Shown here: positions 15,385 to 43,759 of the stretch, one piece after another
How the letters are laid out: the number at the start of each line of letters is the position of its first letter
Position numbering within the stretch: the first letter of the stretch is position 1
IMG/VR virus record: IMGVR_UViG_3300035698_025300
Reading direction: 5' to 3' (one strand)
DNA length: 64,000 nucleotides
From: a virus
Translations under genes and position numbers: made by a program
Notes under the pieces: generated by a model
The model's input: the letters and a program-made list of their open reading frames with translations, nothing else
Told to the model about the DNA's origin: nothing
The model's database searches: none

Positions 15385-15419
15385 AAAAAAGCCTACCGAA
15401 CTCATTTGTGCGGTAGGCT
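15385..15419 (-). terminator. attenuator terminator 1
   Basis: AGCCTACCG...CGGTAGGCT followed by a T-run; homologous to the 20487-20521 hairpin. Confidence 0.85.
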
Positions 15420-15458
15420 CATAAAAAATAACGTAAAGCTCTAACGCACTTCCTCCGC

Positions 15459-16833
15459 CAAGCACACTTCGATGGGGCACCCGTAGACGAGAAAGAGGCA
15501 GTGCTTCCATATCGGGGATTTGAGAAATACCAGTACATAGCCTACAAGTTCGGGCGCATTGCCAGAAAGCTGAACTACGTCAACAAATAGGCGCTATGGC
15601 ATTCCGAACAGACCAGGCCTGCTTTGGTCTTTGGTCTTCGGCTTCTGTCCAGCATTCCCGCAATGGTCGATGTCGGCAGGATCGTAGTTTGTCCAAAGGA
15701 CCTCGGTACGCTTGCCTTTCGTGGCGTGGTTGGTGCGTTCAGCGCTCCGAGTCCTATACCACTGGCATTCGGGATACAACTCTTCCATCAGGTCGCAATC
15801 GTAGTTGGAGATGGCAACGTGACCCACCACTGTATTCAGGACTGCTGCAAGCGCCCGGTGTTCGTCATCTGTCATTTCGAAGCCATAGGCCTTCGTGTCG
15901 CCTCGGGTTGCGTGGATATATGGAGGATCACAGTAGAAAAGGGTATCGGGCGAATCATATAGGAGGATAACGTCAATGGCTGGACGGTTCTCTATCTGAA
16001 CACGAATCAAGCGTTCCGCGATCGCAGGCAGTTGGTCAACTCCTCCGAGCCAACGGCTGATTACACCACTCATGCCGCGGCGACTAGTGTTCTTGCAGTT
16101 CGCCCACCTGCCTATCGTGGCTGTCTGTGCCAGGCCTGTTCGGACTTGGCGAGCGCGAATATAGAAGCGCCTGGCTCGTTCCAGAGGAGGTACATCCGGG
16201 TCCAAGACACATGCACTGCCAAATTCCTCTCTCGAAAAGGGCGTGAGAGCGATGGCCTCGATTAGCTTGTCCTTCTCATCTCTGAGTACGCGGAAGAAAT
16301 TGCAGACTTCACCGTCCAAGTCGTTGTATGTTTCGATGCTGGCGGGAGGCCGATTCAGAAGTACGGCGGCCGACCCGGAGAACGGCTCGCAATAGTGATG
16401 GCATGGCGGCAGCAATGGAAGAAGCCAGTCTAAGTGGCTAAACTTCCCCCCATACCAGCCGAATGGGATCAGCTTCCGGCGTCCGAGCCGCTGTACGGGC
16501 GGGGCCAGCTTTCGTCCGTTCTTCTTTCTTTTCATTCCGTCCATGTGCAATTCCAAAAGGCAGTAAGTGATTTTCTAACTGTGCGTTACCGCCATTCCTA
16601 GGTGGTTAGGAAGTCGGTCCAGCAGTATTGATCAACTGTAACCCGTGCCAGCGGAAATTGCGAGGCTTTTCGTTACAGGCCCTACCAGATCGGACATCGG
16701 ACGAGCCCATTCCGCCGGGCGTCACGAGGCCTTGGAAGGCGTCTCCACTGGAGCCGCCGAGGCAACTCGGGATCGAAGGCCTTGGACCACTTCGCGCCAA
16801 CGCCTCTGGAGTTCCGTTTCGATGGAGCTCCGC
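15459..16833. mobile_element. 1375-bp GC-rich captured bacterial DNA segment flanked by a 6-bp direct repeat
   Basis: CTCCGC at 15453-15458 and 16828-16833; abrupt GC shift; truncated gene 3' ends at both sides. Confidence 0.8.
15594..16556 (-). CDS. DNA adenine methyltransferase (Dam/D12-class N6)
   Basis: FGWYGGK, YCEPFSGSAAV, YNDLD, FYCDPPY. Confidence 0.92.
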   Translation of the reverse strand: MELHMDGMKRKKNGRKLAPPVQRLGRRKLIPFGWYGGKFSHLDWLLPLLPPCHHYCEPFSGSAAVLLNRPPASIETYNDLDGEVCNFFRVLRDEKDKLIEAIALTPFSREEFGSACVLDPDVPPLERARRFYIRARQVRTGLAQTATIGRWANCKNTSRRGMSGVISRWLGGVDQLPAIAERLIRVQIENRPAIDVILLYDSPDTLFYCDPPYIHATRGDTKAYGFEMTDDEHRALAAVLNTVVGHVAISNYDCDLMEELYPECQWYRTRSAERTNHATKGKRTEVLWTNYDPADIDHCGNAGQKPKTKDQSRPGLFGMP

Positions 16834-16898
16834 TGTAAAGGCTTTAACCGCCCAAATAGTTTTAAAGAACATGTTGTTACGTGCGTTTTCCATGCTTC

Positions 16899-16927
16899 AT
16901 TATATGATACTCAAAACAGCAGTGCAA
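16899..16927 (-). promoter_or_regulatory. sigma70 promoter of leader 1
   Basis: TTGCAC-17-TATAAT with AT-rich upstream element. Confidence 0.8.
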
Positions 16928-17031
16928 CAACTTTTTTTTAAAAAATATTTCAGCTCAATCATAAAGGTTTTTACCCATATATTAAGTATTTATACTTTAG
17001 GCTACAATATTAATTAAGGGGTTTTCAATAT

Positions 17032-19092
17032 ATGTCCAATTTTAATAATTACAAAGGTTTTAAGATATTAGCAGGAACGCCAACAGGCGATGGTGGAAAA
17101 GCTTTAAATGAAAATTTCACCTACGCAGGAGATACGATAGAAGACGCAGGAGATACGATAGAAGAAAATAGTAATGACATCTTATCTCTAGAAAATAAAA
17201 GCACAATCAATTATTGGAGTTTTGACCTTTTGGGAGACTCAATATCAACTGTTAGCGGGAACCTGTGGTCTGGAACAATCACATATGGTAGCTGGGCAGA
17301 AATGGCTGCAATATTTTCAAACCAAAGGGTGCAGCTTGCTAATAGATTTGCTTCTGGCGGGTATAGCTCTCAAGAGATTATGAACAACTATTTATCTAGT
17401 GCTGTAGCTTCAGATTCTGATATGTGCGTCATCCACTGCGGGATTAATGATTGGGGGGATGGTATAGTTTCAACGACAACACTCCTTAATATTAGGACCA
17501 TGACAGATGCTCTAATAGCCGTTGGAAAAAAGGTCATTCTAACGACATTAATGCCAGATGGCTCGACGGCGGGACTGGACTCCAAGTGGCATGAATGGTA
17601 CCTGATTAACGAAGGAATAAGATCAATGGTACTAGAATATCCCGGTAAAGTTGTTTTAGCTGATTTCGCTAATGTTGTAATCGATATAGATGCAAATGTA
17701 AGTGGGCCGAGAGGAGATTCTATGGGTCATCCGTCCTGGAAGAGTGAATATAGTACCGACCTCGTACATCCAAAAGCTGGCCCAGCTACAAGAGAAATGG
17801 GTCGAGCACTATTAGAAGCCTTTGAGAGATTTTCTATTCCAAACGAGTATTTTTGGCTGGGCTCTACTGGGTCAATTAATGGTGTCCACAACCCGCTTTG
17901 TTTTGGAGAGGACGGGAGCTTGGCTGGAGGGGCGACCGGAACGGCTCCAGACTGGTGGAAATTTGAGGGGAATTCTGATTGGGTTTCGTATGTATCAGCC
18001 AGAACAGGAAACCAAAGCCGAAGCAATTGGTTCTCAGCAACTATGGACGCCACAGTTGCGCCGGCAAGCTTAACACAGCCTTCTATAAGACTCCAGGATG
18101 GCGTGTATAAAGTATACCTCGACATAGAAATACCAATAGGAGCAGAAGCCAATAACTCTGATAGCTATATCCAATTATTTTATCAAGACTCAGATGGAAG
18201 TCCAATTGAAGTTTATAACGCTAGATATTTTCAAAACGAGGCATTAATAGATTCCGAAAATGGATTTTCTGGAACGCTCAAAGGTAATGTAACCATCAAC
18301 AGCGGTGATACTAATGTTAAGTTACTTTTACTCATTTCTGGTATTTCTGATGTTTCTGTTTCTGGACTAAGATTCGAAACCGTCACAGATAGCTCTTCTG
18401 TTAGAAATGTATTAGATTTTGACGGGGCAGGATTCATCGGCACTGACCTGACTGTTCCTATTGTTTCGGGCGTTTTTCCGGCTACTACTGGATGGACGAT
18501 AGAAGCCTGGGTGAATGCGGTAGAAGCTAGAATAGAAAGCGGAATTGTTACAAATAAAATAAGAGGAATATGTAGCGGATGGCAAAATATATGTCCGTTT
18601 TTTGGGATTAATGAAAATAATTATTTTGAACTATCTGCTCACATAAATAATAATATCTTTAAAGACGATAGCTCAGTTCTTGCCCCAGATGGGTCTGGCT
18701 ACGGGTGGCATCATTACGCTGTTACAGTTTCAAATAATGGAGGGAATACTGATATTATATACTATTATGACGGGATAAAAATAGGATCAACTGTCACTAC
18801 GGCGGGAAACCTGACAAACAACTCCGCGTATGAAGGATTAAATTATATTGGGAAATCTGCTGGATCAGTTGGGATATTAGGGTCTATTGCGGGTTTTGGA
18901 ACACGCCCATCTCCAGCGACACCGGCGGAAATAGCTACGGCATACGCAGAAGGGCTAGGGACTTTGACAGATTATGACATGTACCTAAGATGCGATGACG
19001 GATCTGGAACTACTGTCACAGATTCAACGGTAAATGAAAATGATGTAACATTGCCAGCATCTGGAGCTGCTTGGGGAACTGACGTTGTTTGA
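17032..19092 (+). CDS. SGNH/GDSL hydrolase plus LamG-like domain protein, probable virion appendage
   Basis: GDSIS, CGINDW, D.VHP; C-terminal WTIEAWV...WHHYAVT LamG pattern. Confidence 0.75.
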   Translation: MSNFNNYKGFKILAGTPTGDGGKALNENFTYAGDTIEDAGDTIEENSNDILSLENKSTINYWSFDLLGDSISTVSGNLWSGTITYGSWAEMAAIFSNQRVQLANRFASGGYSSQEIMNNYLSSAVASDSDMCVIHCGINDWGDGIVSTTTLLNIRTMTDALIAVGKKVILTTLMPDGSTAGLDSKWHEWYLINEGIRSMVLEYPGKVVLADFANVVIDIDANVSGPRGDSMGHPSWKSEYSTDLVHPKAGPATREMGRALLEAFERFSIPNEYFWLGSTGSINGVHNPLCFGEDGSLAGGATGTAPDWWKFEGNSDWVSYVSARTGNQSRSNWFSATMDATVAPASLTQPSIRLQDGVYKVYLDIEIPIGAEANNSDSYIQLFYQDSDGSPIEVYNARYFQNEALIDSENGFSGTLKGNVTINSGDTNVKLLLLISGISDVSVSGLRFETVTDSSSVRNVLDFDGAGFIGTDLTVPIVSGVFPATTGWTIEAWVNAVEARIESGIVTNKIRGICSGWQNICPFFGINENNYFELSAHINNNIFKDDSSVLAPDGSGYGWHHYAVTVSNNGGNTDIIYYYDGIKIGSTVTTAGNLTNNSAYEGLNYIGKSAGSVGILGSIAGFGTRPSPATPAEIATAYAEGLGTLTDYDMYLRCDDGSGTTVTDSTVNENDVTLPASGAAWGTDVV

Positions 19093-19099
19093 GTTTTTA

Positions 19100-19173
19100 T
19101 ACCCGTACACGGATTCGAACCGAGATTAACAGCTTGAAGGGCTGTCGTCCTAAACCACTTAGACGATACGGGC
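19100..19173 (-). tRNA. tRNA-Glu(TTC)
   Basis: Loop CCTTCAA. Confidence 0.88.
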
Positions 19174-19177
19174 GTAT

Positions 19178-19942
19178 TTAGTATCCAATTTTATTATTAA
19201 ATATAGGTTTCATCCTACATTTAGAATCACCAGTAAAATGTAAAAGATCAAAATCCATAAATAGTTTTTTTGTTTTTTTTGTAGACGGGTAATAGCCAAT
19301 TTTTATATTACATTCTACTCCATCATAAATATTGTTGTATATCATATAATTAAAAGCTGTTTGATCATATGAGTTTGAACTTCTATATCTTTTGCCATTT
19401 TTTATTAAATCAAGCCAAATATCAAACATATGAGACAAATATTTAGAATTTATTGCGAAAAAACCAGCATTTATCCCACGAATACCACTCATTTTATTTA
19501 ACCGTTTTCTACTAAACATCTGATTATGCCAGGAATTGTTTTTCAGAAGACAGTCTTCTAAAACGTATTTAACTTTCCCATTATCTAATCCATTAAATAT
19601 ATTATGAATTTTTTTACAAAATAAAATATCTGCGTCTACAAACATTATGTTTTTATACTTATTTGGGTCTATCATTCTACCACAAGCTATCTTCATATAT
19701 CGATCATCATTTGGAGTTTGCTTAACTTTGAAAATTTTATAGTATCCGCTATTGTCGCACTGGCAATCTGTGAATATTATTATATCTCCATCAAATTTTC
19801 CTTTCTTCCTAGCCGAGATAGCGCACATTTTTGCCATCTCAAAATGTTTTTCTCCAAGACCGACAGTATACATAACACTGTTTTCTTTTGATTTATTTGT
19901 ATAATGCAAAGTGACTCTTTCCATCATTTTATCATGCCACAT
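19178..19942 (-). CDS. GT-A glycosyltransferase (GT8-like)
   Basis: FVDADIL, INAGFF, DQTAFN, HFTG. Confidence 0.75.
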   Translation of the reverse strand: MWHDKMMERVTLHYTNKSKENSVMYTVGLGEKHFEMAKMCAISARKKGKFDGDIIIFTDCQCDNSGYYKIFKVKQTPNDDRYMKIACGRMIDPNKYKNIMFVDADILFCKKIHNIFNGLDNGKVKYVLEDCLLKNNSWHNQMFSRKRLNKMSGIRGINAGFFAINSKYLSHMFDIWLDLIKNGKRYRSSNSYDQTAFNYMIYNNIYDGVECNIKIGYYPSTKKTKKLFMDFDLLHFTGDSKCRMKPIFNNKIGY

Positions 19943-19980
19943 AATCAGCGTTTATCCTTTACGAAACTACAAATAAAGAA

Positions 19981-20055
19981 CACCCCTAATCGGATTCGAA
20001 CCGATGTTAACAGACTGAGAATCTGTCGTCCTAAACCTAACTAGACGATAAGGGC
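19981..20055 (-). tRNA. tRNA-Glu(CTC)
   Basis: Loop TTCTCAG. Confidence 0.9.
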
Positions 20056-20074
20056 ATTACGCGAAAAATGTCAA

Positions 20075-20169
20075 CTCCCTAGCTAGGACTCGAACCTAGA
20101 ACCTGCTGGTTATTTATTGCGCTATTTAACGCATACAGCCAGCCGCTCTACCAATTAAGATACTAGGGA
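20075..20169 (-). tRNA. tRNA-Asn(GTT) with a 22-nt intron in the anticodon loop
   Basis: U1-A72, G73; removing 20113-20134 gives loop CTGTTAA. Confidence 0.75.
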
Positions 20170-20175
20170 ATAAGA

Positions 20176-20266
20176 CTCCAGGGGGAGGACTCGAACCTCC
20201 ATACCGTTCTAGACGGATTACGTCTGATTAACAATCAGGTCACTTACCCAATTAGTGTACCCCAGA
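20176..20266 (-). tRNA. tRNA-Asn(GTT) with long variable arm
   Basis: Loop TTGTTAA, 22-nt variable region, U1-A72, G73. Confidence 0.8.
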
Positions 20267-20345
20267 ATATGTAATATTTACTTGTCATTATTTCGCACTG
20301 ATGTTTCTTTTAAACATCTTTCCAGTTTATATCCATCAAAAAAAG

Positions 20346-20418
20346 GGCGACTAACCAGATTCGAACTGGCCCCCACAGATTCACAGTCTATTATGCTAAC
20401 CACTACACCATAGCCACC
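20346..20418 (-). tRNA. tRNA-His(GTG)
   Basis: G-1:C73, loop CTGTGAA. Confidence 0.92.
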
Positions 20419-20440
20419 GTATCAATATTTAATTTTCAAA

Positions 20441-20477
20441 ACAACGCGGCGCCTTAACCAATTGGGCCACGCTCACC
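20441..20477 (-). pseudogene. 5' half of a tRNA (His-like), truncated at the anticodon loop
   Basis: GGTGAGCGTGGCCCAATTGGTTAAGGCGCCGCGTTG with no 3' half. Confidence 0.6.
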
Positions 20478-20486
20478 ATGTATATT

Positions 20487-20521
20487 AAAAAAGCCTACCG
20501 AACGTTTCTGCTCGGTAGGCT
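20487..20521 (-). terminator. attenuator terminator 2
   Basis: AGCCTACCGA...TCGGTAGGCT followed by a T-run. Confidence 0.88.
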
Positions 20522-20543
20522 CATAAAAATCTATGCTTATGAC

Positions 20544-20621
20544 TTAACGCACGAATACCTCTTCAGCGGTTTCTTCCGCTTCGTTATGATTAAATTCATT
20601 ATGGTTTCGTGCAAAAGTCAT
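20544..20621 (-). CDS. leader peptide 2, MTFARNHNEFNHNEAEETAEEVFVR
   Basis: RBS AAGGA; 25 codons between promoter and terminator. Confidence 0.8.
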   Translation of the reverse strand: MTFARNHNEFNHNEAEETAEEVFVR

Positions 20622-20641
20622 AGTAATTTTCCTTATGTCTT

Positions 20642-20670
20642 ATTATATGATACTGAACATCAGCAAGCAA
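20642..20670 (-). promoter_or_regulatory. sigma70 promoter of leader 2
   Basis: TTGCTT-17-TATAAT. Confidence 0.8.
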
Positions 20671-20716
20671 CTTCTTTCTTAAAAAATCTTTGTTCGTTCT
20701 CTATTTATAAAAATTA

Positions 20717-20787
20717 AGCTCTCGGAGGGGGTCGAACCCTCATCTCTGGTGTACGAGACCAGTATGCTCCCCTTGCACCACAAGAGC
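20717..20787 (-). tRNA. tRNA-Thr(CGT)
   Basis: Loop CTCGTAC. Confidence 0.88.
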
Positions 20788-20830
20788 GTCAAACAACATT
20801 ATATTATAGTATATTATTTTTTATATGCAA

Positions 20831-21895
20831 TTATTTTCTATTAAAAACAACAGAGGCATAACATCTTGACGGTCGATCTCTTTTTATCCTATACTTGGAG
20901 ATACTTTTAGTGTCTTTGCTTAAGTGTTCCCAAAAATCGTATAAATTGTTTCTATAATTTTCATTATATATAAGATGAATTAATAGGGATGAAATTCCTT
21001 TTGGGCTAAGATACTTTTCCCATGTTTCTTTTGATTTTTTTGCAAAAGGTTCTGGGTCTATTTCTTTTAAGACCAAAAGATCTGATGGAGAGTTAATATA
21101 TACATAATGTTCATTGGGGTAAAATGGGAACGGATAGCATGGTATATAGTTAAAAGCCAAAGGCATGCCGAGTGACATATATTCCGTTTCCCTGTAGCAT
21201 TTTCCATCATATTTAGTACTTGAACCGCGAAGGGAAAACCCCCATTTACATTTTTCTAAACTGTCTACATATTCGGATTTATTTTTATGGAATTTAGGGT
21301 AAAATAGTCCAGATTTTTTAGCGTGATCAACCCAAGGTCTTCTGTGGCCTCTATTTCTATCCACAGTAAAAGCAGAGCTTCCTAAATATTTGTGATTTTC
21401 GTTCTTCCATAAAAATCTCCCAACAGGAAAATTTTTACTAACCCCATAAGCAAAAGGTAAAATCTTAAATCCATATTTTTCTTCAATAGACGTAAACAGA
21501 TCTTTATGTTTAAGTGTATATTGCAATATGAAATAAAATTTGATACCTCTAAATAGTTCTTCATAATTCTCAACAAAACTGTGAGATATGTGTGGTACGT
21601 CGTGGCCGTCTAATATACAGTTTATATTATTTATTCTTATTTTATATAAATGATCACCAATATATTTCATTTTTCTAACGCTTCTCTTCAACAACTGCGA
21701 AACGGTTACGTTTTTGAAAATTCCACTATTCCGAAAACAGTCATTAAAATAACGAAAATTATAGTTGCGACCAGGGTTTGACACAGTTAAACTGTGTTGA
21801 GTTTTTTCAAAATGACTAAAATCATATTTGCTAAACACTCTATTATTAAAATGATATTTTAGATTAGACCGTCTAGACATAAAACCTCTTCGCAC
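20831..21895 (-). CDS. putative glycosyltransferase (GT-B-like C-terminus)
   Basis: EYVDSLEKCKWGFSLRG...CYRETEYMSLGMP pattern; gene context. Confidence 0.55.
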   Translation of the reverse strand: MRRGFMSRRSNLKYHFNNRVFSKYDFSHFEKTQHSLTVSNPGRNYNFRYFNDCFRNSGIFKNVTVSQLLKRSVRKMKYIGDHLYKIRINNINCILDGHDVPHISHSFVENYEELFRGIKFYFILQYTLKHKDLFTSIEEKYGFKILPFAYGVSKNFPVGRFLWKNENHKYLGSSAFTVDRNRGHRRPWVDHAKKSGLFYPKFHKNKSEYVDSLEKCKWGFSLRGSSTKYDGKCYRETEYMSLGMPLAFNYIPCYPFPFYPNEHYVYINSPSDLLVLKEIDPEPFAKKSKETWEKYLSPKGISSLLIHLIYNENYRNNLYDFWEHLSKDTKSISKYRIKRDRPSRCYASVVFNRK

Positions 21896-22254: not shown

Positions 22255-22262
22255 GTTCTTAA

Positions 22263-33313: not shown

Positions 33314-33925
33314 TCAATCCGCAACTACCCAGTCTATTTTACTGCTTTTTCCAATATAACTAAATATTTTTTTATATTCTTCAAAATTCTCATCGTCAAA
33401 ACAGCAGATAGTTACTTCGTCTAAATACGTTCCTTCAGGATGACATATGTGGTGCAGCGCTCTATTTAGTGAATTCATTGCAATATCGGCTGCTATATCT
33501 TTTGGAAAACAGAAAGCCCCTGTACTTATACAAGGAAAAGCTATACTTTTTAACCCCTGCTTACTAGCCAGTGTCAAGCAGTTATTATAACACAATTCTA
33601 AATCACTTAAACACTTTGGTTTTTCTTTTTCAGAAAAAACGGGGCCTACGGTATGTATTACATATTTCGCTTTTAAATCATAACCGCCAGTAATACGAGC
33701 CTCACCAACGGGACAGCCGTAAAGATTTAAACATTCTCCTAATAGTTTTGGGCCAGCCGCTCGATGAATTGCACCATCCACCCCTCCACCGCCAGTTAGT
33801 TGTTCGTGGGCAGCGTTAACCATGGCATCTACAGAAAGTTCTGTAATATCTCCTCTCGTGAGTAGTATTTTAGCTCCTACTGTTCGCTTATTTACTGACA
33901 TTTCCATATTGATATCTTCGGTCAT
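33314..33925 (-). CDS. macrodomain ADP-ribose hydrolase (YmdB/MacroD-like)
   Basis: GDIT, VNAAH..LTGGGGVDGAIHRAAG, IHTVGP, FPCISTGAF. Confidence 0.92.
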   Translation of the reverse strand: MTEDINMEMSVNKRTVGAKILLTRGDITELSVDAMVNAAHEQLTGGGGVDGAIHRAAGPKLLGECLNLYGCPVGEARITGGYDLKAKYVIHTVGPVFSEKEKPKCLSDLELCYNNCLTLASKQGLKSIAFPCISTGAFCFPKDIAADIAMNSLNRALHHICHPEGTYLDEVTICCFDDENFEEYKKIFSYIGKSSKIDWVVAD

Positions 33926-33988: not shown

Positions 33989-34061
33989 CAGGCCCACGAG
34001 GACTCGAACCCGCGAATAGAAGGACCAAAACCTTCTGTGTTGCCAATTACACTATGGGCCT
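33989..34061 (-). tRNA. tRNA-Gln(TTG)
   Basis: Loop TTTTGGT. Confidence 0.88.
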
Positions 34062-34071
34062 ATATTAAAAA

Positions 34072-34145
34072 TCGGAACGGCCGGAATCGAACCGGCGTTC
34101 TCCTAGTCCCGAACTAGGCGAATTACCTAACTTTCCTACATTCCG
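34072..34145 (-). tRNA. tRNA-Pro(CGG)
   Basis: Loop TTCGGGA. Confidence 0.9.
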
Positions 34146-34150
34146 TCTAA

Positions 34151-34223
34151 CTGCCTCGACAGGACTCGAACCTGTATAGACTGATTCAAAGTCAGTTATG
34201 TTAACCAATTACATTACAAGGCA
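34151..34223 (-). tRNA. tRNA-Gln(TTG)
   Basis: Loop CTTTGAA. Confidence 0.9.
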
Positions 34224-34230
34224 TCATGAA

Positions 34231-34303
34231 TCGGAGCGAGAGGATTCGAACCTCCGTCTCGGCGCCCCAAACGCCGTACTAAACCAAGCTCAGCTACGCT
34301 CCG
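34231..34303 (-). tRNA. tRNA-Pro(TGG)
   Basis: Loop TTTGGGG. Confidence 0.9.
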
Positions 34304-34383
34304 TAAACATACTTTAATTATAATGATAGCATAAACCGCAAGTGCGAGCCATTTAGTAAAAAGAGAGTGACCCGCTACAGCGA

Positions 34384-34449
34384 TTATTGCTGATCGGGGT
34401 CTGGTTGTGTATCTTGATCGACGGTCTGATTGTAGTTAATCTTTGTCAT
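34384..34449 (-). CDS. leader peptide 4, MTKINYNQTVDQDTQPDPDQQ
   Basis: 21 codons immediately after a consensus promoter and before the Pro/Gln tRNAs. Confidence 0.75.
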   Translation of the reverse strand: MTKINYNQTVDQDTQPDPDQQ

Positions 34450-34468: not shown

Positions 34469-34497
34469 ATTATAGGATACTTAAAGATCCTTGTCAA
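34469..34497 (-). promoter_or_regulatory. consensus sigma70 promoter of leader 4
   Basis: TTGACA-17-TATAAT. Confidence 0.9.
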
Positions 34498-34509
34498 TAA
34501 CTTTTTTTA

Positions 34510-34584
34510 TAGCGGGAGATGGATTCGAACCACCGACCTGGAGCTTATGAGGCTCCCGAGCTAACCTAACTGCTCTATCCCGCG
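34510..34584 (-). tRNA. tRNA-fMet-like (CAT)
   Basis: C1/U72 mismatch, A11-U24, loop CTCATAA; lacks the three consecutive G-C anticodon-stem pairs. Confidence 0.8.
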
Positions 34585-35291: not shown

Positions 35292-35413
35292 AAAGACGCC
35301 GCTATGGAAGCCGTTTCACCCTCCCGCTGTTTTATTATACAATCTCAATTGGAGGATGCAGCAACTTTTTTATTTTTGTAGGATTTTTTTATTTTAACTC
35401 GAATAATATATGT

Positions 35414-36025: not shown

Positions 36026-36086
36026 TTTTTATCGCTTAAAAGGATTATCCTCTATAACGCTATAATTATATATTAAGGATAATATT

Positions 36087-36686: not shown

Positions 36687-37282
36687 GTAATAAGATTTTC
36701 GGTATAGGTCTGCTCAAAACGGGAACTGTCTCTCTATATGAGGCAATGAAGAGGATAGGATTTAAGTCAGTTCATTACCCCAGAAAAATGAATCTGATAA
36801 AAAAACATCAATTCAGTAATGATATTACCGTGTCTGGTAGATTCAGTTCGCTAGACATGGAATTCGAAAATAGTAAATTCATTTTTACGCAAAGAAACAT
36901 AGACGACTGGGTTGAATCTTGCTATAACCACTTTAAAAACTCTAATAGACAAAATATGAATTTTTCTTACTGGATGTCGGAAGCCTACTATTATATTTTT
37001 AATTGTTCCGCAGAAAAAGCTGAGAATCTATCTAAGCAACAATACAAAAAGTGTTATAAAGAATTCGAACAAAAAGTTCGAGATTACTTCGCGAACCGTC
37101 CTAATGACATTTTATATCTAAACATAATGGAAGACAAGAATCCTTGGACCAAGTTAGTGACATTCTTAGAAAAAAATAGCCTTCTTTCTTTTCCTCACAA
37201 AAACAAAGGAAAATATTCAAAAATTGACGTTGACAAGAAAAACCACAAAAGTGGAAAGAACTTTCATATTATAGGTCGATAA
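36683..37282 (+). CDS. sulfotransferase-family protein
   Basis: KIFGIGLLKTGTVSL PAPS loop, KFIFTQR...W..S, W..L..FL, FPH.N. Confidence 0.8.
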   Translation: MSNKIFGIGLLKTGTVSLYEAMKRIGFKSVHYPRKMNLIKKHQFSNDITVSGRFSSLDMEFENSKFIFTQRNIDDWVESCYNHFKNSNRQNMNFSYWMSEAYYYIFNCSAEKAENLSKQQYKKCYKEFEQKVRDYFANRPNDILYLNIMEDKNPWTKLVTFLEKNSLLSFPHKNKGKYSKIDVDKKNHKSGKNFHIIGR

Positions 37283-37715
37283 CAGTTGTAGGATTGAAAA
37301 ACAGATTATCACTGTTGGTCGGGTTTACCCGTACTATAAATGCATAGAACTACGATGCATTAAAGGTAAAAATCCGGTTGCCGTACTTATAGCAAATAGC
37401 AGCTAAAAAGGCTATAAGCAAGAATTCATTGCAGGGCGAGTATCCTGCATGGAAAAAGCAAAGTATTAAACAAAAGATACTAGCAACGGCGCTGCTAAGA
37501 CCAGACCAATAAAAGGTAACTTAATTGGGAGTTACTGAATAATTGATCATAAGCATCCTCTTATTATAATTTCTTTATGTACTTTTTCAACACACTACAA
37601 TAGACTTGCGCTAAAAGTACTTAGCAAGTGGTCGTACTGCGAGGTACAAAAAAGGAAGGTAAAAGTAATAATCACTGTCCGAAGGACAGGGATTGCTGCG
37701 AGCGAAGCGAGCTAG

Positions 37716-38084
37716 CTATTTACTATGACCAGATAGAGACCGGCAAAGCTCTTTGTCAGAAAAAACTTGAGAACTATGCGTATTGTAATCTACGAAAACA
37801 TTTTTATTAGTAGACTCTGAACTGATAAAATCTAATATAACTGTTTTCTGGCGTCTAGTAGCTGGCTTTGTTAACTGGATGCTTATCTCTCTTTCTGTTC
37901 CTACTAGTCTGATAAAACTGTGAAAAAAAGCTATACGGTAATATAAAAAATCATACCCGTATTTGTAATCAATGTTAAATAGATCACAAATTTTCTGAGT
38001 ATGTTTTTGATTAAAGGTTTCTATTATCTCACCGTCTTTTGCCACCCATAAACTTATGTTTTTAGAACAAACTTGTGTAGCCAT
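37716..38084 (-). CDS. hypothetical protein
   Basis: 122-aa ORF. Confidence 0.6.
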   Translation of the reverse strand: MATQVCSKNISLWVAKDGEIIETFNQKHTQKICDLFNIDYKYGYDFLYYRIAFFHSFIRLVGTEREISIQLTKPATRRQKTVILDFISSESTNKNVFVDYNTHSSQVFSDKELCRSLSGHSK

Positions 38085-38183
38085 TATATCTATCCTCTGT
38101 CTATTTAAAAAGACAATATATGTAACATGCGCTTTTTTATATTGGATATTAATAAAGAATATATCCTTTTTTATTTATAGATT

Positions 38184-38660
38184 TTATGGAGTTAAAATTG
38201 AGTTTGGAGAACAAGAAAAATCATTCACTGGTTCTGGATCAAAATCGGGACGCTCATCTCCACCATTATTTCTACGCCAATAATCATTCCAGATATATTC
38301 TTCGACTTTTTTTATAAACGAATAAATATCTTCTTCACAAATACTTGTGATAAAATCTGTATGAAATGTTAATCCTGATCCAACAGTAGATATATGGTTG
38401 ATGAACTCTAAATCTCCAATTAGGTATTCATTATTTTTTGATACTTGAATTGTGTATTTATAGTCTTTTAGGGAGAAAACTAGCCGTACTATTGATGTAT
38501 CTATTGTAAGTCTGCTTAAAACAATGCGCCTCATTAAAGGCTGACAAAGAGACACTTGTATTTCTGAACTATTTTCATTTAGTTCAAAATAAGAGGTTAC
38601 GGCTTTAATAAGATGGATTTCCCAGTCTTGTGACCAGTCTTTTAATTCAGATTCATTCAT
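38184..38660 (-). CDS. hypothetical protein
   Basis: 158-aa ORF. Confidence 0.65.
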   Translation of the reverse strand: MNESELKDWSQDWEIHLIKAVTSYFELNENSSEIQVSLCQPLMRRIVLSRLTIDTSIVRLVFSLKDYKYTIQVSKNNEYLIGDLEFINHISTVGSGLTFHTDFITSICEEDIYSFIKKVEEYIWNDYWRRNNGGDERPDFDPEPVNDFSCSPNSILTP

Positions 38661-38843
38661 GTTAATTCTCGATAATATGTTGTTCTTTTTCCATTATAGT
38701 GAGTGGATGCTTTTAAATCAACGAAAAATGTAAAAATAGTGGATATTATTAAAAACTCTCTTAATTCTTTTTAAATAATAAAGGACAAATTCTGGGTTTA
38801 GTTAATAAAAAATAGAAGTAAACCCAAACAGGGAGAATGAATA

Positions 38844-39104
38844 ATGAAAGCTATAGTAATAATTTTTCTACTGATGATAGCGATAGGTGCTTCTGGTTGT
38901 AGCACGGCTCAATCTCACAATATGTATGAAAACAAGAGTATTGGTCCTTCAACTCATTATGAAGGGCCTGCGGATTATAAAAGGACTAGAATCGAGATTA
39001 GGCGAGGTTCAGGTAATAAGATTGAGATTTACCCGTCCAAGAACAGTCGAAGATTTAGGATAACCAAAACGAATGGACGAATAATAGTGGAGGCTTTGGA
39101 TTAA
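38844..39104 (+). CDS. small lipoprotein-like protein
   Basis: Hydrophobic N-terminus with ASGC lipobox. Confidence 0.6.
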   Translation: MKAIVIIFLLMIAIGASGCSTAQSHNMYENKSIGPSTHYEGPADYKRTRIEIRRGSGNKIEIYPSKNSRRFRITKTNGRIIVEALD

Positions 39105-39105
39105 T

Positions 39106-39858
39106 ATGAAAAATACAAATAGCAATGTAGTAAATAACGGGTGGAGACCAAAATATATAATACTTACCATTTTACTGATGGTCTCAACATTTTGCGTTGG
39201 TTATAGTGTCGCTCTAAGAAAAACACAAACTACTAATGTGAATCAAGTAGTTAATAGTGAGTACGCAAAATTTGCAGAGATTGCTAAGAGTTTAAATGAA
39301 GGTGATTCTGTAATAATAACTATTGATGAGGGAACTACCCCAGGGGTTCGCACAACAAGTGAGGGAAATAAAGACATAGTTATTAAGTCTGACAAGTGGT
39401 ACGGTAGATTCTTGTCTTGGTTTGGTTTAGGAGCAACAGAAGCAGCAGTTAAAGACCAAGGTTTTGATATAGGTTCCGGCGGAGAAGAAGCACAATTTGC
39501 AAAACAGAAAGGTTATGGAATCTTAGAGAGTTTGTGGTCTAAAATTAAGTCGCTTTTCTGGGGAGTCGGTTTCGCCCTCTTACTACTAGGCGTTTTGACC
39601 TTTGTTCCTGTCGTTGGGCCTATTGCCTCTGGAATACTGAGATTCATCGCCAGTTTGATTCCTATGGTCGGAAGCGCTGTAGAACGCATAGTTGCTTATT
39701 TCAAGTCCGAGAAGCCTCTAAAGCAAACTGTGGCAGGCGTACAGAATTATAAGGATAATCTTGAGGCGACAGAAAAAGAGAAGTTAAAAGACGAATTAAT
39801 TAAAGCTCAAGACCAAGGATCTAGAGATGTTATTAAAAAGGTAAAAAATAAGATTTAG
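39106..39858 (+). CDS. membrane protein
   Basis: N-terminal TM segment plus a C-terminal hydrophobic hairpin. Confidence 0.65.
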   Translation: MKNTNSNVVNNGWRPKYIILTILLMVSTFCVGYSVALRKTQTTNVNQVVNSEYAKFAEIAKSLNEGDSVIITIDEGTTPGVRTTSEGNKDIVIKSDKWYGRFLSWFGLGATEAAVKDQGFDIGSGGEEAQFAKQKGYGILESLWSKIKSLFWGVGFALLLLGVLTFVPVVGPIASGILRFIASLIPMVGSAVERIVAYFKSEKPLKQTVAGVQNYKDNLEATEKEKLKDELIKAQDQGSRDVIKKVKNKI

Positions 39859-39879
39859 TATTTTTGAATAGACACAGAG

Positions 39880-39909
39880 AAGGGCGGGATTTATTCCTGC
39901 CCTTTTTTT
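39880..39909 (+). terminator. terminator between convergent genes
   Basis: AAGGGCGGGA...TTCCTGCCCTT followed by a T-run. Confidence 0.75.
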
Positions 39910-40931
39910 ATTGTCAGTGGTATGCAAGAAACATCATAGTTGTTAGTAAGTATATCGGAAACCAGTTTTTGCTTTTCTTTGCTTTCTACTAATATTTGAG
40001 CGGAACCGTCTCCTTGAGAACCTACCCCTTTTGCTCCAAGTATATGATCTGATATTAAATTGGAGTTAATGATTTTGTGTAGTATAGGAGCTTGTAGTTC
40101 TTTACAGGTTGGGGCCAACATATCGTCAAAATCTTTTTGAGACTTAACTAAAGCTTTTCCTAGTCCAGAATTGTCTCCATTTTCTATTAGTTTTTTTGCA
40201 TTAAGCACATTTGCTTTGTTGATTGGACCTAAGCACTTGTGTTTTTCTTTTTCTTGGACGGTTGACGGGAACGGAAAACCGGAGTTTAGACTAGATAATA
40301 TTTTTTTTGTATTTTTGCTGGAATGAAGATCAACGATAATCATATAAAGATCATTTTTTGGATATATTTCTTCTACTTCTATGTTATCTCCATCAAATTC
40401 TATTAGGACAGGATTTGAATAGGCACATGCTTGATCTAATTTTCCACAACGTGAAGGTGTAGTTACCTCTCCTAGATATGCTATTTCCATTTCTCTTTTT
40501 GTGGTCCAGTTTAGATCGCATATGGTATTATAGGCTTTTGCTACCAATACGCATATCGACGCTGAGCTAGATAGCCCCTTCTTTAGGGGCAGGTCTGTTT
40601 TGTAGTTATTTATTACGACGCCTGGTATATTTTCATAAGAACTGAGTATTTGATAGAGAACACCACATATGTAGCTGAAATACCCTCCTTTTTGAGCGGA
40701 AAGTTTTAATTTTTCTACATCATAAGGTATTTCTGTGGTGGTCCCATTTTGCGTAAAAAGCAGGCTAGGCTTGTCGTGTCTTTCGATGGACGCATAGTTC
40801 CCCCGATTGGTTGGGGCAACAATTGCATAACCTTTTTCTATATCAGAGTTTTGGCGCCGGTGGCCAGCAGCCCAATCGCTGTGTTCCCCAAGAACACAGA
40901 GTCTACCAGGAACAAATATATTTTTTGACAT
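39891..40931 (-). CDS. GHMP-family sugar kinase (galactokinase-like)
   Basis: VPGRLCVLGEHSDW, LPLKKGLSSSAS, CGKLDQ, GAKGVGSQGDG. Confidence 0.85.
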   Translation of the reverse strand: MSKNIFVPGRLCVLGEHSDWAAGHRRQNSDIEKGYAIVAPTNRGNYASIERHDKPSLLFTQNGTTTEIPYDVEKLKLSAQKGGYFSYICGVLYQILSSYENIPGVVINNYKTDLPLKKGLSSSASICVLVAKAYNTICDLNWTTKREMEIAYLGEVTTPSRCGKLDQACAYSNPVLIEFDGDNIEVEEIYPKNDLYMIIVDLHSSKNTKKILSSLNSGFPFPSTVQEKEKHKCLGPINKANVLNAKKLIENGDNSGLGKALVKSQKDFDDMLAPTCKELQAPILHKIINSNLISDHILGAKGVGSQGDGSAQILVESKEKQKLVSDILTNNYDVSCIPLTIKKGQE

Positions 40932-41026
40932 TGTTTTTCCTAATTTATTTACTGATTATAAAATCGGCATAATCCGGGTATTTCTTGCTGTGTGGCTGTT
41001 TGTAGTCTATAATAAAATATATTCCA

Positions 41027-41416
41027 TTGTCTGTTTTAAGGATAGATATCATGAATTTGGAAATTGTTTTCGAAGATCCGATACACAAATTTGACGATAT
41101 GCATTTTGTTATGATTGATGTGAAGTCTCTTGATGACGCATGGCAGAGCGACCCTTTTTATATACGCTCGAAAAGTGAGGGTAATTCAAAGTATGCAGAA
41201 GCTTTAGACTACATATGCAATTTAAAATCTTGTGCTTCACCTCACATTGGACTTGACTCTGAAGGGAAGGTTGGGTTTTTTGATGGGCGTCATCGTTTTG
41301 CTGTTTTGCGTGATTTAGGGCTTAAATCAATCAAAGTGGCTGTTAGCAAAGAAGATTATTCAAAAATTAAAAGGCTTTTTGAAGCGTCAGTTGGAGTTTT
41401 TGGAGTCATTATTTAG
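41027..41416 (+). CDS. ParB/Srx-like domain protein
   Basis: VGFFDGRHRFAVLRDLG. Confidence 0.55.
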   Translation: MSVLRIDIMNLEIVFEDPIHKFDDMHFVMIDVKSLDDAWQSDPFYIRSKSEGNSKYAEALDYICNLKSCASPHIGLDSEGKVGFFDGRHRFAVLRDLGLKSIKVAVSKEDYSKIKRLFEASVGVFGVII

Positions 41417-41426
41417 GAGTTTTACT

Positions 41427-42455
41427 ATGCGAAAAGTATTTTTATCTTTGGTTGTTTTATTTATGGTCGTGTTGTCAGGATGCTCGTCAAGTTATGTGCT
41501 TCGAGATGAAAGTGGGAAAATTATCGGAGCGGCAGAGCCTATCACGAAAAAGGCCGCTGATAATTATCGAAAGGCTAGGAACCAGTCTGATAGTCGTAAA
41601 CCGGCACCAAAAACAGCTATTGCCGAGAAGGGGATAAGTTCTCACGTATCGGTTGTAACCAGTGCCGGTCAGGGGTCTGGAATTGTTATAAAAAGAAATA
41701 ATATCACCTATGTTTTGACGACAGCACACGGTTTAATGCGTGCGTCAGAAAAATTTACGCCAAAAAAAGTGGACCATCCAGCTAAGCCGATAAACCCCTT
41801 ACCAACAAAAACTTTAGGACCAGATAATATTGGAGCAGAAGGGTGGGCTAAGAATTCCTTGTCTTTGGACAATTTATATTCTCGCCTTAAGAGCACAGGA
41901 ATAGTTGAAACCGAAGATTTAGATCTCGATCTCGATACAATAGGCTTAGACGTCAGCGCTGGTTACAAGAAGGTTTGCGGAATGTGGTTTCAAACAAATA
42001 ATATTAATGTTGTGAAATATGAATTTCGTCAATCAGGTAAATCTGTTAAATACAGCAAGGCTGTAGCAATAAATATAGATCCATTATATGACATAGCTAT
42101 TTTGAGAATTGAAAACGGACACAAGCTTGCGGTTAAAGGTGCTGATTTTTATGACGGCGTAGATAGAATTGCCATTGGGTCAGATGTTTTCCATTGTGGT
42201 AATATGTTGGGCTTGTTGCCAGAAACACTCACTAAAGGGATCGTTTCTCATAATAACAGAGGAGCCGGTCAGTACCTACAACTTGATTGCTACGCGATTT
42301 ATGGATCATCTGGTGGTGGAGTGTATGAGGCATCTAGCGGCAAGTGCGTTGGAATGGTGAGGAGCATATATTCACCAAATATGACGATGGCCATTTCCAT
42401 TGAGTTCATAAGACTGTGGGCTCATACTCGAAATTTGGATAACCTTTTTGAGTAA
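41427..42455 (+). CDS. trypsin-like serine protease with lipoprotein signal
   Basis: LSGC lipobox; GSG, LTTAH, DIAIL, GSSGGG. Confidence 0.85.
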   Translation: MRKVFLSLVVLFMVVLSGCSSSYVLRDESGKIIGAAEPITKKAADNYRKARNQSDSRKPAPKTAIAEKGISSHVSVVTSAGQGSGIVIKRNNITYVLTTAHGLMRASEKFTPKKVDHPAKPINPLPTKTLGPDNIGAEGWAKNSLSLDNLYSRLKSTGIVETEDLDLDLDTIGLDVSAGYKKVCGMWFQTNNINVVKYEFRQSGKSVKYSKAVAINIDPLYDIAILRIENGHKLAVKGADFYDGVDRIAIGSDVFHCGNMLGLLPETLTKGIVSHNNRGAGQYLQLDCYAIYGSSGGGVYEASSGKCVGMVRSIYSPNMTMAISIEFIRLWAHTRNLDNLFE

Positions 42456-42503
42456 CCCCTGAAACATTGATTAATTTTGTGTAAAAGAAAAAGTATTTTC
42501 TTG

Positions 42504-42532
42504 TTGCTCCCGCGAGCGATAGATTGTATAAT
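42504..42532 (+). promoter_or_regulatory. sigma70 promoter of leader 3
   Basis: TTGCTC-17-TATAAT. Confidence 0.8.
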
Positions 42533-42574
42533 GATATAGTAAGAGATAAATTCTTGCATATAGGATAAATTCAG

Positions 42575-42694
42575 ATGAATACTGCAACACAACAATTTGA
42601 AGGCGTAGCTATAGTCAATAAGACTGTCTCGCAATCTTTGTATTCATCGTTATCCTATCTCTCTAGTAGTTTATCTAGTTATTGTTTGCTGTAA
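42575..42694 (+). CDS. leader peptide 3, MNTATQQFEGVAIVNKTVSQSLYSSLSYLSSSLSSYCLL
   Basis: RBS AGGA; 39 codons before the Leu/Tyr/Cys/Ser tRNA array. Confidence 0.8.
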   Translation: MNTATQQFEGVAIVNKTVSQSLYSSLSYLSSSLSSYCLL

Positions 42695-42701
42695 TCACGC
42701 A

Positions 42702-42751
42702 AACTCGGACGGCTAGAAAACGAATTCTCTGTATTCCCCGTTTGGGTTCTT
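42702..42751 (+). terminator. attenuator hairpin 3
   Basis: AACTCGGACGG/CCGTTTGGGTT with a short U-tract. Confidence 0.6.
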
Positions 42752-42775
42752 GACAAGTAAATAGTGTAAATATGC

Positions 42776-42852
42776 GCCCACGTAGGCAAATTGGTAAAGT
42801 CTGTTGGTTCAAAACCAGCGTAATTTTGGAGGTTCGATTCCTCTCGTGGGTA
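42776..42852 (+). tRNA. tRNA-Leu(CAA), short variable arm
   Basis: Loop TTCAAAA. Confidence 0.85.
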
Positions 42853-42857
42853 GTATC

Positions 42858-42930
42858 GCCTCGGTAGGCCAAAGGCAGAGTCAGCGGATTTAAAATCCGT
42901 ACAGTGTGGGTTCGAATCCCACCCGAGGCA
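42858..42930 (+). tRNA. tRNA-Leu(TAA), 5-nt variable loop
   Basis: Loop TTTAAAA. Confidence 0.85.
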
Positions 42931-42943
42931 TTGTAAAATAGAT

Positions 42944-43019
42944 GCCGCGTAGGCAAATTGGTAAAGTCTGTTGGTTCAAAACCAGCGTAATTTTGGAGGT
43001 TCGATTCCTCTCGCCGGTA
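42944..43019 (+). tRNA. tRNA-Leu(CAA) duplicate with altered acceptor stem
   Basis: Body identical to 42776-42852. Confidence 0.75.
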
Positions 43020-43028
43020 GTTAGATTA

Positions 43029-43117
43029 GGGTTCTGTTCCATACGGCGGTCTGTAAAACCGTTGCCTGAAAAATATGTATGGCGGTCGGGCGAGTGGTTC
43101 AACTCCTCCAGAACTCA
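43029..43117 (+). tRNA. D-armless tRNA-Tyr(GTA)-like RNA
   Basis: 8-bp acceptor, loop CTGTAAA, no D-arm, long variable arm. Confidence 0.65.
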
Positions 43118-43191
43118 TGATTCTATGAAGAGATAAATCGGCCCAGCGAAAGCGATTGTAGGTTCGATTCCTATCTTGCTCAGTAATTTTT

Positions 43192-43276
43192 GGAAGTGTG
43201 ACCGAGTGGATAATTGTAGCAGACTGCAAATCTGCCGAGCGTATGCCCTTCGTAAGTTCGAATCTTACCGCTTCCG
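43192..43276 (+). tRNA. tRNA with GCA (Cys) anticodon, long variable arm and G73
   Basis: Loop CTGCAAA. Confidence 0.8.
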
Positions 43277-43284
43277 TTTCTATT

Positions 43285-43367
43285 GGAAGGTAATGCAGCA
43301 TTGGTAGCTGTGCTGGTCTGCTAAGCCAAGTGTATGAAAATATCAGGTTCGATTCCTGTGCCTTCCG
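43285..43367 (+). tRNA. 8/4 tRNA-Ser(GCT)
   Basis: GGAAGGTA/TGCCTTCC, T-stem CAGG/CCTG, extended D-stem, G73. Confidence 0.85.
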
Positions 43368-43377
43368 TTGATTACCT

Positions 43378-43471
43378 GGAGCGCGTGACAGCTATTGGCA
43401 GGGCTGTGCTGGTTCTGAAAACCAGTTGGCGTCTTGATGGCGTCATGCAGGTTCGATTCCTGTCCGCTCCG
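43378..43471 (+). tRNA. tRNA-Ser(TGA), 8/4-like
   Basis: Loop TCTGAAA, T-stem CAGG/CCTG, G73, one acceptor mismatch. Confidence 0.8.
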
Positions 43472-43493
43472 TTGCTCTTAGAAGTGTGAAGTT

Positions 43494-43577
43494 GGCACGG
43501 TGGCTGAGTGGTTAAAGCGGCGGTCTGCAAAATCGTTACGCCCGCAAGGGGCGTGGGTTCGAATCCCACCCGTGCCT
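43494..43577 (+). tRNA. tRNA-Cys(GCA) with long variable arm, U73
   Basis: Loop CTGCAAA. Confidence 0.85.
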
Positions 43578-43582
43578 TTATT

Positions 43583-43672
43583 GGAAGGTAGCCGGATATT
43601 GGCTAGTCGGGGCTGGCCGGAAACCAGTTGGGCGCGTCTCGCGTCCTGAGAGTTCGATTCTCTTGCCTTCCG
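43583..43672 (+). tRNA. 8/4 tRNA-Ser(GGA)
   Basis: GGAAGGTA/TGCCTTCC, T-stem AGAG/CTCT, loop CCGGAAA. Confidence 0.85.
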
Positions 43673-43677
43673 CTTAT

Positions 43678-43759
43678 GGAGCATAGGTAGAAAGGTTCTT
43701 AACGGGTTTCGAAAGCCCGCCCAGCCTTTGGGCTGAAGGTTCGATTCCTTTATGCTCCG
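43678..43759 (+). tRNA. 8/4 tRNA-Ser(CGA)
   Basis: GGAGCATA/TATGCTCC, T-stem AAGG/CCTT, loop TTCGAAA. Confidence 0.82.

Follow-up and report, generated by a model that had tools for sequence, protein, structure and literature searches.

Why would a phage place, in front of its clusters of transfer RNA (tRNA) genes, short open reading frames (ORFs) rich in the very amino acids that those tRNAs carry? The question arises from the virus record IMGVR_UViG_3300035698_025300, analysed here as one stretch of 64,000 nucleotides (nt), which is called the window throughout. The window is phage-like and encodes a large terminase (TerL), a ribonucleotide reductase, genes for the salvage of nicotinamide adenine dinucleotide (NAD), a transfer-messenger RNA (tmRNA) and about 39 tRNAs, 36 of which were found by ARAGORN together with the tmRNA and three further ones by Rfam. 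Direct reading of the sequence reveals four tRNA units that share one layout, in which a sigma70-type promoter (TTGxxx-17-TATAAT) is followed by a short ORF, a hairpin or terminator comes next and the tRNAs last. Phage tRNAs are usually viewed as static aids to codon usage, or as decoys or replacements against tRNA-cleaving defences, and to our knowledge the regulation of their genes is essentially unstudied. We propose that the short ORFs are probably the leaders of ribosome-mediated transcription attenuators, each of which would switch on the cluster behind it when decoding of the codons of that cluster slows down.

Leader content and downstream tRNA genes

An initial annotation had described the four units with leaders of 21 to 39 codons. 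For L2, L3 and L4 this description held, and in all three an AGGA/AAGG resembling a Shine-Dalgarno (SD) sequence lies 6-10 nt 5' of the ATG; L1, on the other hand, has no intact ORF of that length, since it is split by an island. The L2 leader (20544..20621, -) follows a TTGCTT-17-TATAAT promoter (20642..20670, -) and has 25 codons, MTFARNHNEFNHNEAEETAEEVFVR, with the SD AAGGA 9 nt upstream. N, H and E account for 12 of its 24 residues, and the cluster behind its intrinsic terminator (20487..20522, -; 12-13 bp stem, 6-nt loop, T6) is cluster B (19100..20417, -), which comprises His(gtg), Asn(gtt), an Asn-like tRNA, Glu(ctc), a glycosyltransferase-8-like ORF and Glu(ttc). The L3 leader (42575..42694, +) lies behind a TTGCTC-17-TATAAT promoter with a TG extension (42504..42532, +) and has 39 codons ending in ...SQSLYSSLSYLSSSLSSYCLL, with S, L, Y or C at 20 of the 21 final codons; cluster D (42776..43761, +) downstream holds Leu(caa), Leu(taa), Leu(caa), an odd tRNA at 43088-43182, Cys, Ser(gct), Ser(tga), Cys, Ser(gga) and Ser(cga). 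The L4 leader (34384..34449, -), with a perfect TTGACA-17-TATAAT promoter (34469..34497, -), has 21 codons, MTKINYNQTVDQDTQPDPDQQ, and 11 of its residues 8-21 are Q, P or D; it precedes cluster C (33989..34303, -), that is Pro(tgg), Gln(ttg), Pro(cgg) and Gln(ttg). When the island is removed from L1, and only then, a 25-codon leader MENARNNMFFKTIWAVKAFTAEEVR results. The 13-residue core of this rejoined leader, FFKTIWAVKAFTA, draws on seven amino acids, F, K, T, I, W, A and V, and these are exactly the ones carried by the 14 tRNAs of cluster A (10355..15328, -), which run Phe, Ala, Phe, Thr, Lys, Lys, Lys, Thr, Trp, Ala, Ile, Val, Val, Val and are interspersed with small ORFs. Cluster A ends with a T-run at 10355, followed by the promoter of a tRNA-Gly.

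Measured against the window proteome in a binomial test, each leader was enriched for its own tRNA set (P = 0.014 for L1, 4e-5 for L2, 2e-5 to 5e-5 for L3 and 1e-4 for L4), and every pairing of a leader with the tRNA set of another cluster was non-significant. It might be argued that low-complexity short ORFs of AT-rich DNA simply happen to lie near tRNA genes, and indeed other short ORFs of the window score similarly, with the true leaders ranking 1, 4 and 9 among 2012 tests (503 short ATG ORFs against 4 tRNA sets). Since such ORFs score alike, enrichment by itself is not unique; what goes beyond chance is enrichment together with position and correct pairing. Only the true leaders, which are among the top-scoring ORFs, sit on the correct strand directly in front of their matching clusters.

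The comparison was then extended to relatives. The closest match of TerL among deposited phages, from a 485-kb uncultured phage, is 27% identical; megablast of the window against the INPHARED phages gave no match, and no near match to the window was found in IMG/VR in scans that used two flanking proteins and the patterns of the terminator and of L3. Low-depth contigs of the phage itself are present in salt-lake metagenomes. Homologous leaders were found in six uncultured relatives, with flanking proteins 47-52% identical where comparable. Two of these leaders (L004 and L006) were reached via the protease beside L3, which led to three relatives at 47% identity with the leader present on two of the contigs; L011 was reached via the protein beside L2, and L014, L020 and L016 (the last on contig L015/L016) via a pattern consisting of the invariant GTGCGTTA plus terminator. 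Several other leads were discarded: three hits of the IMG/VR pattern scan (L001-L003) were chance terminator matches without tRNAs and not relatives, two contigs with relatives of a 354-amino-acid protein (P0005 and P0006) carried no tRNAs, and the homologue search with a 686-amino-acid GDSL-like protein returned none. No relative was found for L4, for which the anchor protein downstream of cluster C matches the huge and uninformative Macro-domain family. The ten leaders, four from the window and six from relatives, were assigned to class I (L1, L2, L011, L014, L016 and L020) or class II (L3, L4, L004 and L006).

In the relatives the content of the leader changes with the tRNA set behind it. 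The L3-type tail LYSSLSYLY(T/S)SLSSYCLL is kept in L004 and L006 despite the 47% protease identity; L004 is followed by Leu x4, Tyr and Ser x2, and on the short L006 contig the first visible tRNA is Leu. The L011 leader, MTARINNIMFTFNWATEAHEEFVR, precedes His, Asn, Glu and Ala up to the contig end; if leader and tRNA set match, tRNAs for Phe, Thr, Trp and Ile would be expected beyond it. L014, with the leader MKNTRINNMKTIWATKAFKGNVR followed by Ala, Phe, Thr, Lys x3, Thr, Trp and Ala, is an uninterrupted counterpart of L1 in the window. L020, MTRNHNKMFFYFWAKSAFFGTTNNKAHMWGFVR, is followed by His, Asn, Ala, Phe, Thr, Lys and Trp, and has neither an E residue nor a Glu tRNA. L016, on a 434-kb phage contig, has the leader MTMKRTRHNYMFINQWAARTAVKGRRTVR, which contains H, Y, Q, W and extra R, and its array reads Trp, His, Tyr, Gln, Arg, Arg, Lys, Gln, Ala, Lys, Val, Val, Thr and continues further downstream with Phe, Phe, Ile, Arg, Ala, Gly. 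The 12 identities in this array are all among the 14 residue types of the leader, and C, D, E, L, P and S are missing from both.

Over nine leader/cluster pairs, 43/43 downstream tRNA identities were represented in their own leader (Fisher 4e-13, uncorrected for relatedness). The expectation of the initial annotation that true pairings would outdo shuffled ones, and that leaders of related phages would co-vary with their tRNAs, was borne out: the true pairing was equalled or beaten in 4/720 permutations within the homologous L1/L2 family and in 2/200,000 over all nine pairs. At the codon level, the downstream anticodons can read most of the matched codons; in L016 the Arg codons that would act as sensors are AGA (three of them, with tRNA-Arg tct/cct downstream), distinct from the CGN codons that form helix 1:2, described below. 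The leaders are, moreover, conserved in relatives, with the reading frame open in 10/10 and lengths of 21-42 codons. Taken as sequence comparison, this evidence appears decisive against chance, an explanation effectively refuted by the pairing and permutation tests and left with next to no probability.

Alternative pairings in the leader RNA

In the free RNA of the class I leaders, codons 3-6 (CGCAC/GCACGAA, segment 1) pair with the last codons (GUGCG, segment 2) to give a long hairpin, directly after which comes the terminator. In all six leaders this terminator has a 10-13 bp GC-rich stem followed by T6-7, with a stability of -18 to -23 kcal/mol, and the small internal hairpin UGGGC...GCC is retained with a compensatory change. 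The class I stop codon always lies within the invariant GTGCGTTA(A/G). Folding was informative when the transcript was cut before the 3' arm of the terminator and the footprint of a ribosome was masked. With the ribosome masked mid-sensor, GUGCG..AAGG paired with the 5' arm of the terminator and the first loop bases (GCCU..CGCAC/U) at -11 to -17 kcal/mol, and with the ribosome at the stop codon, segment 2 was covered and the 5' arm was free in the truncated folds. The helix between segments 1 and 2 (helix 1:2) reached -9 to -23 kcal/mol and was better than 94-99% of shuffles in 4/6 class I leaders; helix 2:3, between segment 2 and the 5' arm, reached -12.5 to -16 kcal/mol in 5/6, again better than 94-99% of shuffles. 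That segment 2 also pairs with the 5' arm would be the reason why not only the shape but also the sequence of the terminator stays the same between distant phages. Applied to five class I leaders, RNAalifold returned nothing beyond the internal hairpin and the terminator, since the register of helix 1:2 shifts between sequences.

From these parts we infer a switch that depends on translation of the leader. The host sigma70 RNA polymerase would start at the consensus-like leader promoter, and a pioneer ribosome would translate the leader, in which the sensor codons would be those decoded by the downstream tRNAs. In class I, segment 1 would pair with segment 2, which has the stop codon inside it, or alternatively segment 2 would pair with the 5' arm of the terminator. 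A ribosome that reaches the stop codon would mask segment 2, so that the terminator would form and transcription would stop, and a ribosome stalled on the sensor codons would let segment 2 capture the 5' arm, giving read-through into the tRNAs. The net effect would be that a cluster is transcribed when its own codons are slow and is off when the supply is adequate, which would amount to per-cluster feedback during infection.

A sensor made of RNA only, binding tRNA directly in the manner of a T-box with the ORF incidental, would likewise let the status of tRNA control the terminator. Here, though, the reading frame and the position of the stop codon are conserved, a specifier-loop architecture is missing, as many as 14 amino acids are listed per leader, beyond what a single specifier codon can report, and a scan of the whole window with Rfam 15 at the gathering threshold gave only tRNA and tmRNA matches and no leader, riboswitch or T-box family. 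We therefore give this explanation hardly any credence.

The class II leaders are built differently. In their helix A, which is invariant and 16-18 bp long, the SD/AUG region pairs with the first sensor codons, and compensatory changes are found in an inner hairpin. The 5' arm of a second hairpin is made up of the last sensor codons, and its loop holds the stop codon. In L004 this hairpin is terminator-like (-22.5 kcal/mol, z -3.7, U-rich tail), and in L006 it has no adjacent U-tract. In L3 the corresponding helix B lies at 42674..42717 (+), and in L4 a terminator-like hairpin at 34358..34401 (-) has codons D-P-D-Q-Q as its 5' arm and the stop codon in its loop (-14.1 kcal/mol, z -3.4), followed by CUCUCUUUUU. 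There is no 2:3 helix in class II, as segment 2 and segment 3 are alike rich in pyrimidines. Instead, the terminator hairpin would be blocked directly by a ribosome that stalls late in the sensor.

Observations against attenuation and the interrupted L1 unit

Several observations weigh against attenuation, and some of them favour other readings. Full-length minimum free energy (MFE) folds of the class I leaders always keep the terminator, with or without a masked ribosome, so that antitermination would have to be kinetic; in the trp attenuator, too, the 3:4 helix is the most stable one. Most class I sensor codons lie 3' of segment 1, and a stall at late sensor codons leaves segment 1 unmasked, so that masking it would take either a stall at the first sensor codons or the presence of a second ribosome. 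In L2 of the window, helix 2:3 is no better than shuffles (-6.3 kcal/mol). The initial annotation had proposed UCAUAA/UUAUGA plus GGUA/UACC as the 2:3 helix of L2, and this helix exists but is weak (-4 to -8 kcal/mol); the competing hairpins that the annotation described are real in relatives of the L1/L2 family but weak in L2 itself, and L3 has no U-tract. None of the public RNA runs contains this phage.

In class II an early-sensor stall would leave the terminator free, and a tightly coupled ribosome would also block the hairpin; the polarity is therefore ambiguous and less certain than in class I. After helix B no U-tract is present in the window L3, as against a good one in L004, and the U-tract of L4 is interrupted. 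It is conceivable that L3 and L4 work by pyrBI-like coupling, in which fast decoding would lead to read-through and an early stall to termination, or that stalling controls the processing or stability of the precursor RNA. The location of the 5' arm inside the ORF with the stop codon in the loop, the lack of a 2:3-type antiterminator and the persistence of helix B when a ribosome is masked on early sensor codons are all consistent with such coupling, as is the missing U-tract of L3, which makes plain intrinsic termination doubtful there. On the other hand, the positive feedback that it implies, with fewer tRNAs made when they are scarce, is biologically implausible, the hairpin arm contains half of the sensor codons, at which a stall blocks the hairpin, and the class I units of the same genomes show the classical logic of stall and read-through. 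We consider coupling of this kind unlikely.

Clusters A, B and D share a motif, TTGAAAAnTAAATAT, which is placed 5-12 nt ahead of their first tRNA and also precedes tRNA-Asn, 3' of the terminators (15335-15349, 20425-20439 and 20274-20288 on the minus strand; 42750-42764 on the plus strand), and is found in L004, L006 and L014 as well. It is perfectly kept after the L1 and L2 terminators and similar in L3, L004, L006 and L014, and might act either as a second promoter or in RNA processing; as a promoter it would let transcription bypass the attenuator. The leaders might in that case be separate small units with constitutive terminators, the tRNAs being transcribed from the downstream motif and the codon match serving another purpose or being a relic. 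The perfect conservation of the motif just before the first tRNA, the strength of the class I terminators and the persistence of cluster A behind a broken L1 would all fit this arrangement. The motif, however, does not fit sigma70 spacing and shows no enrichment in the rest of the window (24 matches, 16.8 expected), a relic would not retain its frame, stop position and tRNA co-variation across such distant relatives, and the conserved 2:3 complementarity would be left without a role, so that we regard separate units as very improbable.

The break in L1 is itself a point against attenuation, since cluster A is intact behind it. The unit has a TTGCAC-17-TATAAT promoter (16899..16927, -) with the ATG 5 nt past the -10 box, so that its messenger RNA may be leaderless; L014 shows the same arrangement. 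The first 22 codons, MENARNNMFFKTIWAVKAFTAE (16828..16893, -), are fused in frame to an island of 1369 bp (15459..16827, -), which has a GC content of 55% against 38-40% in its flanks and a GCGGAG repeat at both junctions, and which carries a D12-class (Dam-like) adenine methyltransferase gene (15594-16556, -; PF02086, E 6e-23). L1 now reads as a fusion ORF of 95 codons (16606-16893, -), and its promoter and sensor codons precede this ORF and then the methylase gene. Beyond the island lie the last codons and stop of the leader (A E E V R *; 15441..15458, -), which form segment 2 and contain GUGCG, and an intrinsic terminator (15385..15420, -), GAGCCTACCG...CGGTAGGC plus T6, which has about 87% identity to the L2 terminator. 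The right junction of the island is spanned by a salt-lake metagenome contig, and no island-free form of L1 was found among the salt-lake contigs aligned to the window; uninterrupted homologues exist in L014 and L020. If attenuation is correct, the methylase island inside L1 would be a natural knock-out.

The match of residues to tRNAs is not complete either. The L2 leader retains F, A and T residues with no matching tRNAs behind it, L3 has three Tyr codons with no confirmed tRNA-Tyr in the window, and L4 has four Asp codons with no tRNA-Asp, so that the initial claim that leaders match their own tRNAs stands for the enrichment, which concerns the own set only, but not for Tyr in L3 or Asp in L4. 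A D-armless tRNA-Tyr candidate (43029-43117) that had been proposed in cluster D is overlapped by the odd Rfam tRNA at 43088-43182, and both cannot be real; the latter (+) is a borderline match of 29.9 bits with a 35-nt anticodon region.

Together, the broken L1, the weak antiterminator of L2, the missing U-tract of L3 and the listing of Asp and Tyr without a tRNA give the system in this phage, judging from its sequence, a partly eroded look. The broader claim that codon-matched leaders with terminators gate the clusters fares better across the relatives, where it agrees with the conserved frame, the co-variation and the trp-like helices of class I, than in the window, with its interrupted L1, weak L2 helix 2:3 and L3 without a canonical terminator.

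Known attenuators, leaderless tRNA genes and neighbouring features

Like the attenuators of amino-acid operons, the phage units combine a promoter, a short leader with regulatory codons (whose translation is predicted here) and an intrinsic terminator. Class I resembles trp in having mutually exclusive helices 1:2, 2:3 and 3:4 and a stop codon whose position would make a terminating ribosome cover segment 2. Multivalent attenuators are known from enterobacteria, where thrL responds to Thr and Ile and ilvL and ivbL respond to Ile, Leu and Val, alongside trpL, hisL, pheL and leuL; as in thrL and ilvL, one phage leader would sense several amino acids. Unlike the attenuators of amino-acid operons, the phage units would control tRNAs and not biosynthetic enzymes, so that their output would feed back on decoding, and their leaders list from 3 to about 14 amino acids as a "checklist" of the tRNAs in the operon. 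In addition, the class I sensor codons lie mostly between segments 1 and 2 and not inside segment 1, and the units are phage-encoded and without homology to Rfam leader families.

Another parallel is pheM-pheST of E. coli, in which, as established knowledge has it, a leader-peptide attenuator controls a component of the translation apparatus via matching codons; pheM, unlike the phage units, concerns one amino acid and a synthetase, lies on a bacterial chromosome and involves no tRNA genes. T-boxes likewise couple the status of a specific tRNA to terminator read-through before translation-related genes, but they bind uncharged tRNA directly, with one specifier codon and neither ribosome nor ORF, whereas the phage elements have conserved ORFs. 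Class II is closest to pyrBI and pyrE, where the ORF runs into the terminator hairpin and a ribosome on the last codons prevents the hairpin. In pyrBI the signal is pausing of the polymerase at low uridine triphosphate, whereas the end of the phage ORF is packed with tRNA-matching codons, which points to ribosome stalling as the signal in class II; the helix that occludes the SD is a further addition beyond pyrBI. Since no Rfam leader or T-box family matched, the resemblance to known leaders and T-boxes seems to be one of mechanism and not of descent, and the units analogous rather than homologous. The initial annotation knew of no earlier description, and full-text literature searches for leader-peptide control of tRNA genes likewise found none.

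Several causes might slow the decoding of particular codons during infection. Cleavage of tRNAs by host nucleases such as PrrC, RloC, AriB and VapC is a possible trigger, put forward in the initial annotation by pure inference, and host shut-off or codon mismatch would serve equally well. More tentatively, the units might be per-cluster decoding-rate sensors with which a huge phage replaces, on demand, the tRNA species lost via shut-off, codon-usage mismatch or defence nucleases, the content of each checklist evolving by duplication and sub-functionalisation; this wider picture is plausible, though we would not yet bet on it. The combined His/Asn/Phe/Thr/Lys/Trp leader of L020, as against the split L2 and L1 units of this phage, would illustrate such checklist evolution. 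If attenuation is confirmed, phages would gauge the speed of decoding codon by codon and adjust their tRNA supply, and attenuation would be extended to a new class of targets, stable RNA genes with feedback on decoding. The rule that leader content equals the downstream tRNA set could serve to delimit the transcription units of tRNAs in uncultured phages and to predict tRNAs that are missing or odd, and the units might provide synthetic biology with compact, portable sensors of individual tRNA pools.

Some tRNA genes of the window do without a leader. As the initial annotation had noted, both Gly tRNAs sit directly behind their own promoters (TTGCAT/TTGCTT...TATAAT, 7-12 nt upstream) with no leader, and the same is true of tRNA-Thr(cgt), which has a similar promoter with a 16-nt spacer about 15 nt upstream. 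Neither cluster A nor the L016 array yielded additional leaders within it. A 14-codon ORF, MTDYRRPFGPQVMR, that precedes Val, Gly, Arg and Arg was not accepted as a leader (P about 0.02 by a hand estimate, no SD).

Further details of the tRNA genes were noted. The second Asn tRNA claimed for cluster B (20075-20169, -) is called by Rfam and not by ARAGORN at default settings. It is Asn-like, and a 22-nt insert, perhaps a short intron or the mark of a pseudogene, interrupts its Asn-type anticodon loop CUGU|UAA. Between the L2 terminator and tRNA-His, at 20440-20478 (-), lies the remnant of a tRNA 5' half, resembling acceptor and D-arm, GCCCAATTGGTTAAGGCGC. An RNase P RNA that had been placed between tRNA-Phe and tRNA-Thr (14806-15054, -) had no Rfam match at the gathering score in the scan of the whole window. 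On the L016 contig an ORF of 31 codons with a strong SD, AAAGGAG, lies between the terminator and tRNA-Trp (11197-11292, +) and ends 2 nt before the tRNA, and two gaps in the array (11856-12037 and 12111-12227, +) contain T-arm-like sequences that received no ARAGORN or Rfam call and may be further odd tRNAs.

Among the neighbouring genes, one salt-lake metagenome contig joins position 19405 to 16935 with 16 other letters between, which suggests a variant without the GDSL-lipase-like gene (17032-19092) and tRNA-Glu(ttc). Directly after cluster C a Macro-domain protein is encoded (33314-33925, -; PF01661, E 8e-44), and an NAD-related operon at 46043-50807 (-) has PHROG matches resembling NAD synthetase and nicotinamide phosphoribosyltransferase; this operon and the Macro-domain protein are possible counter-defence genes.

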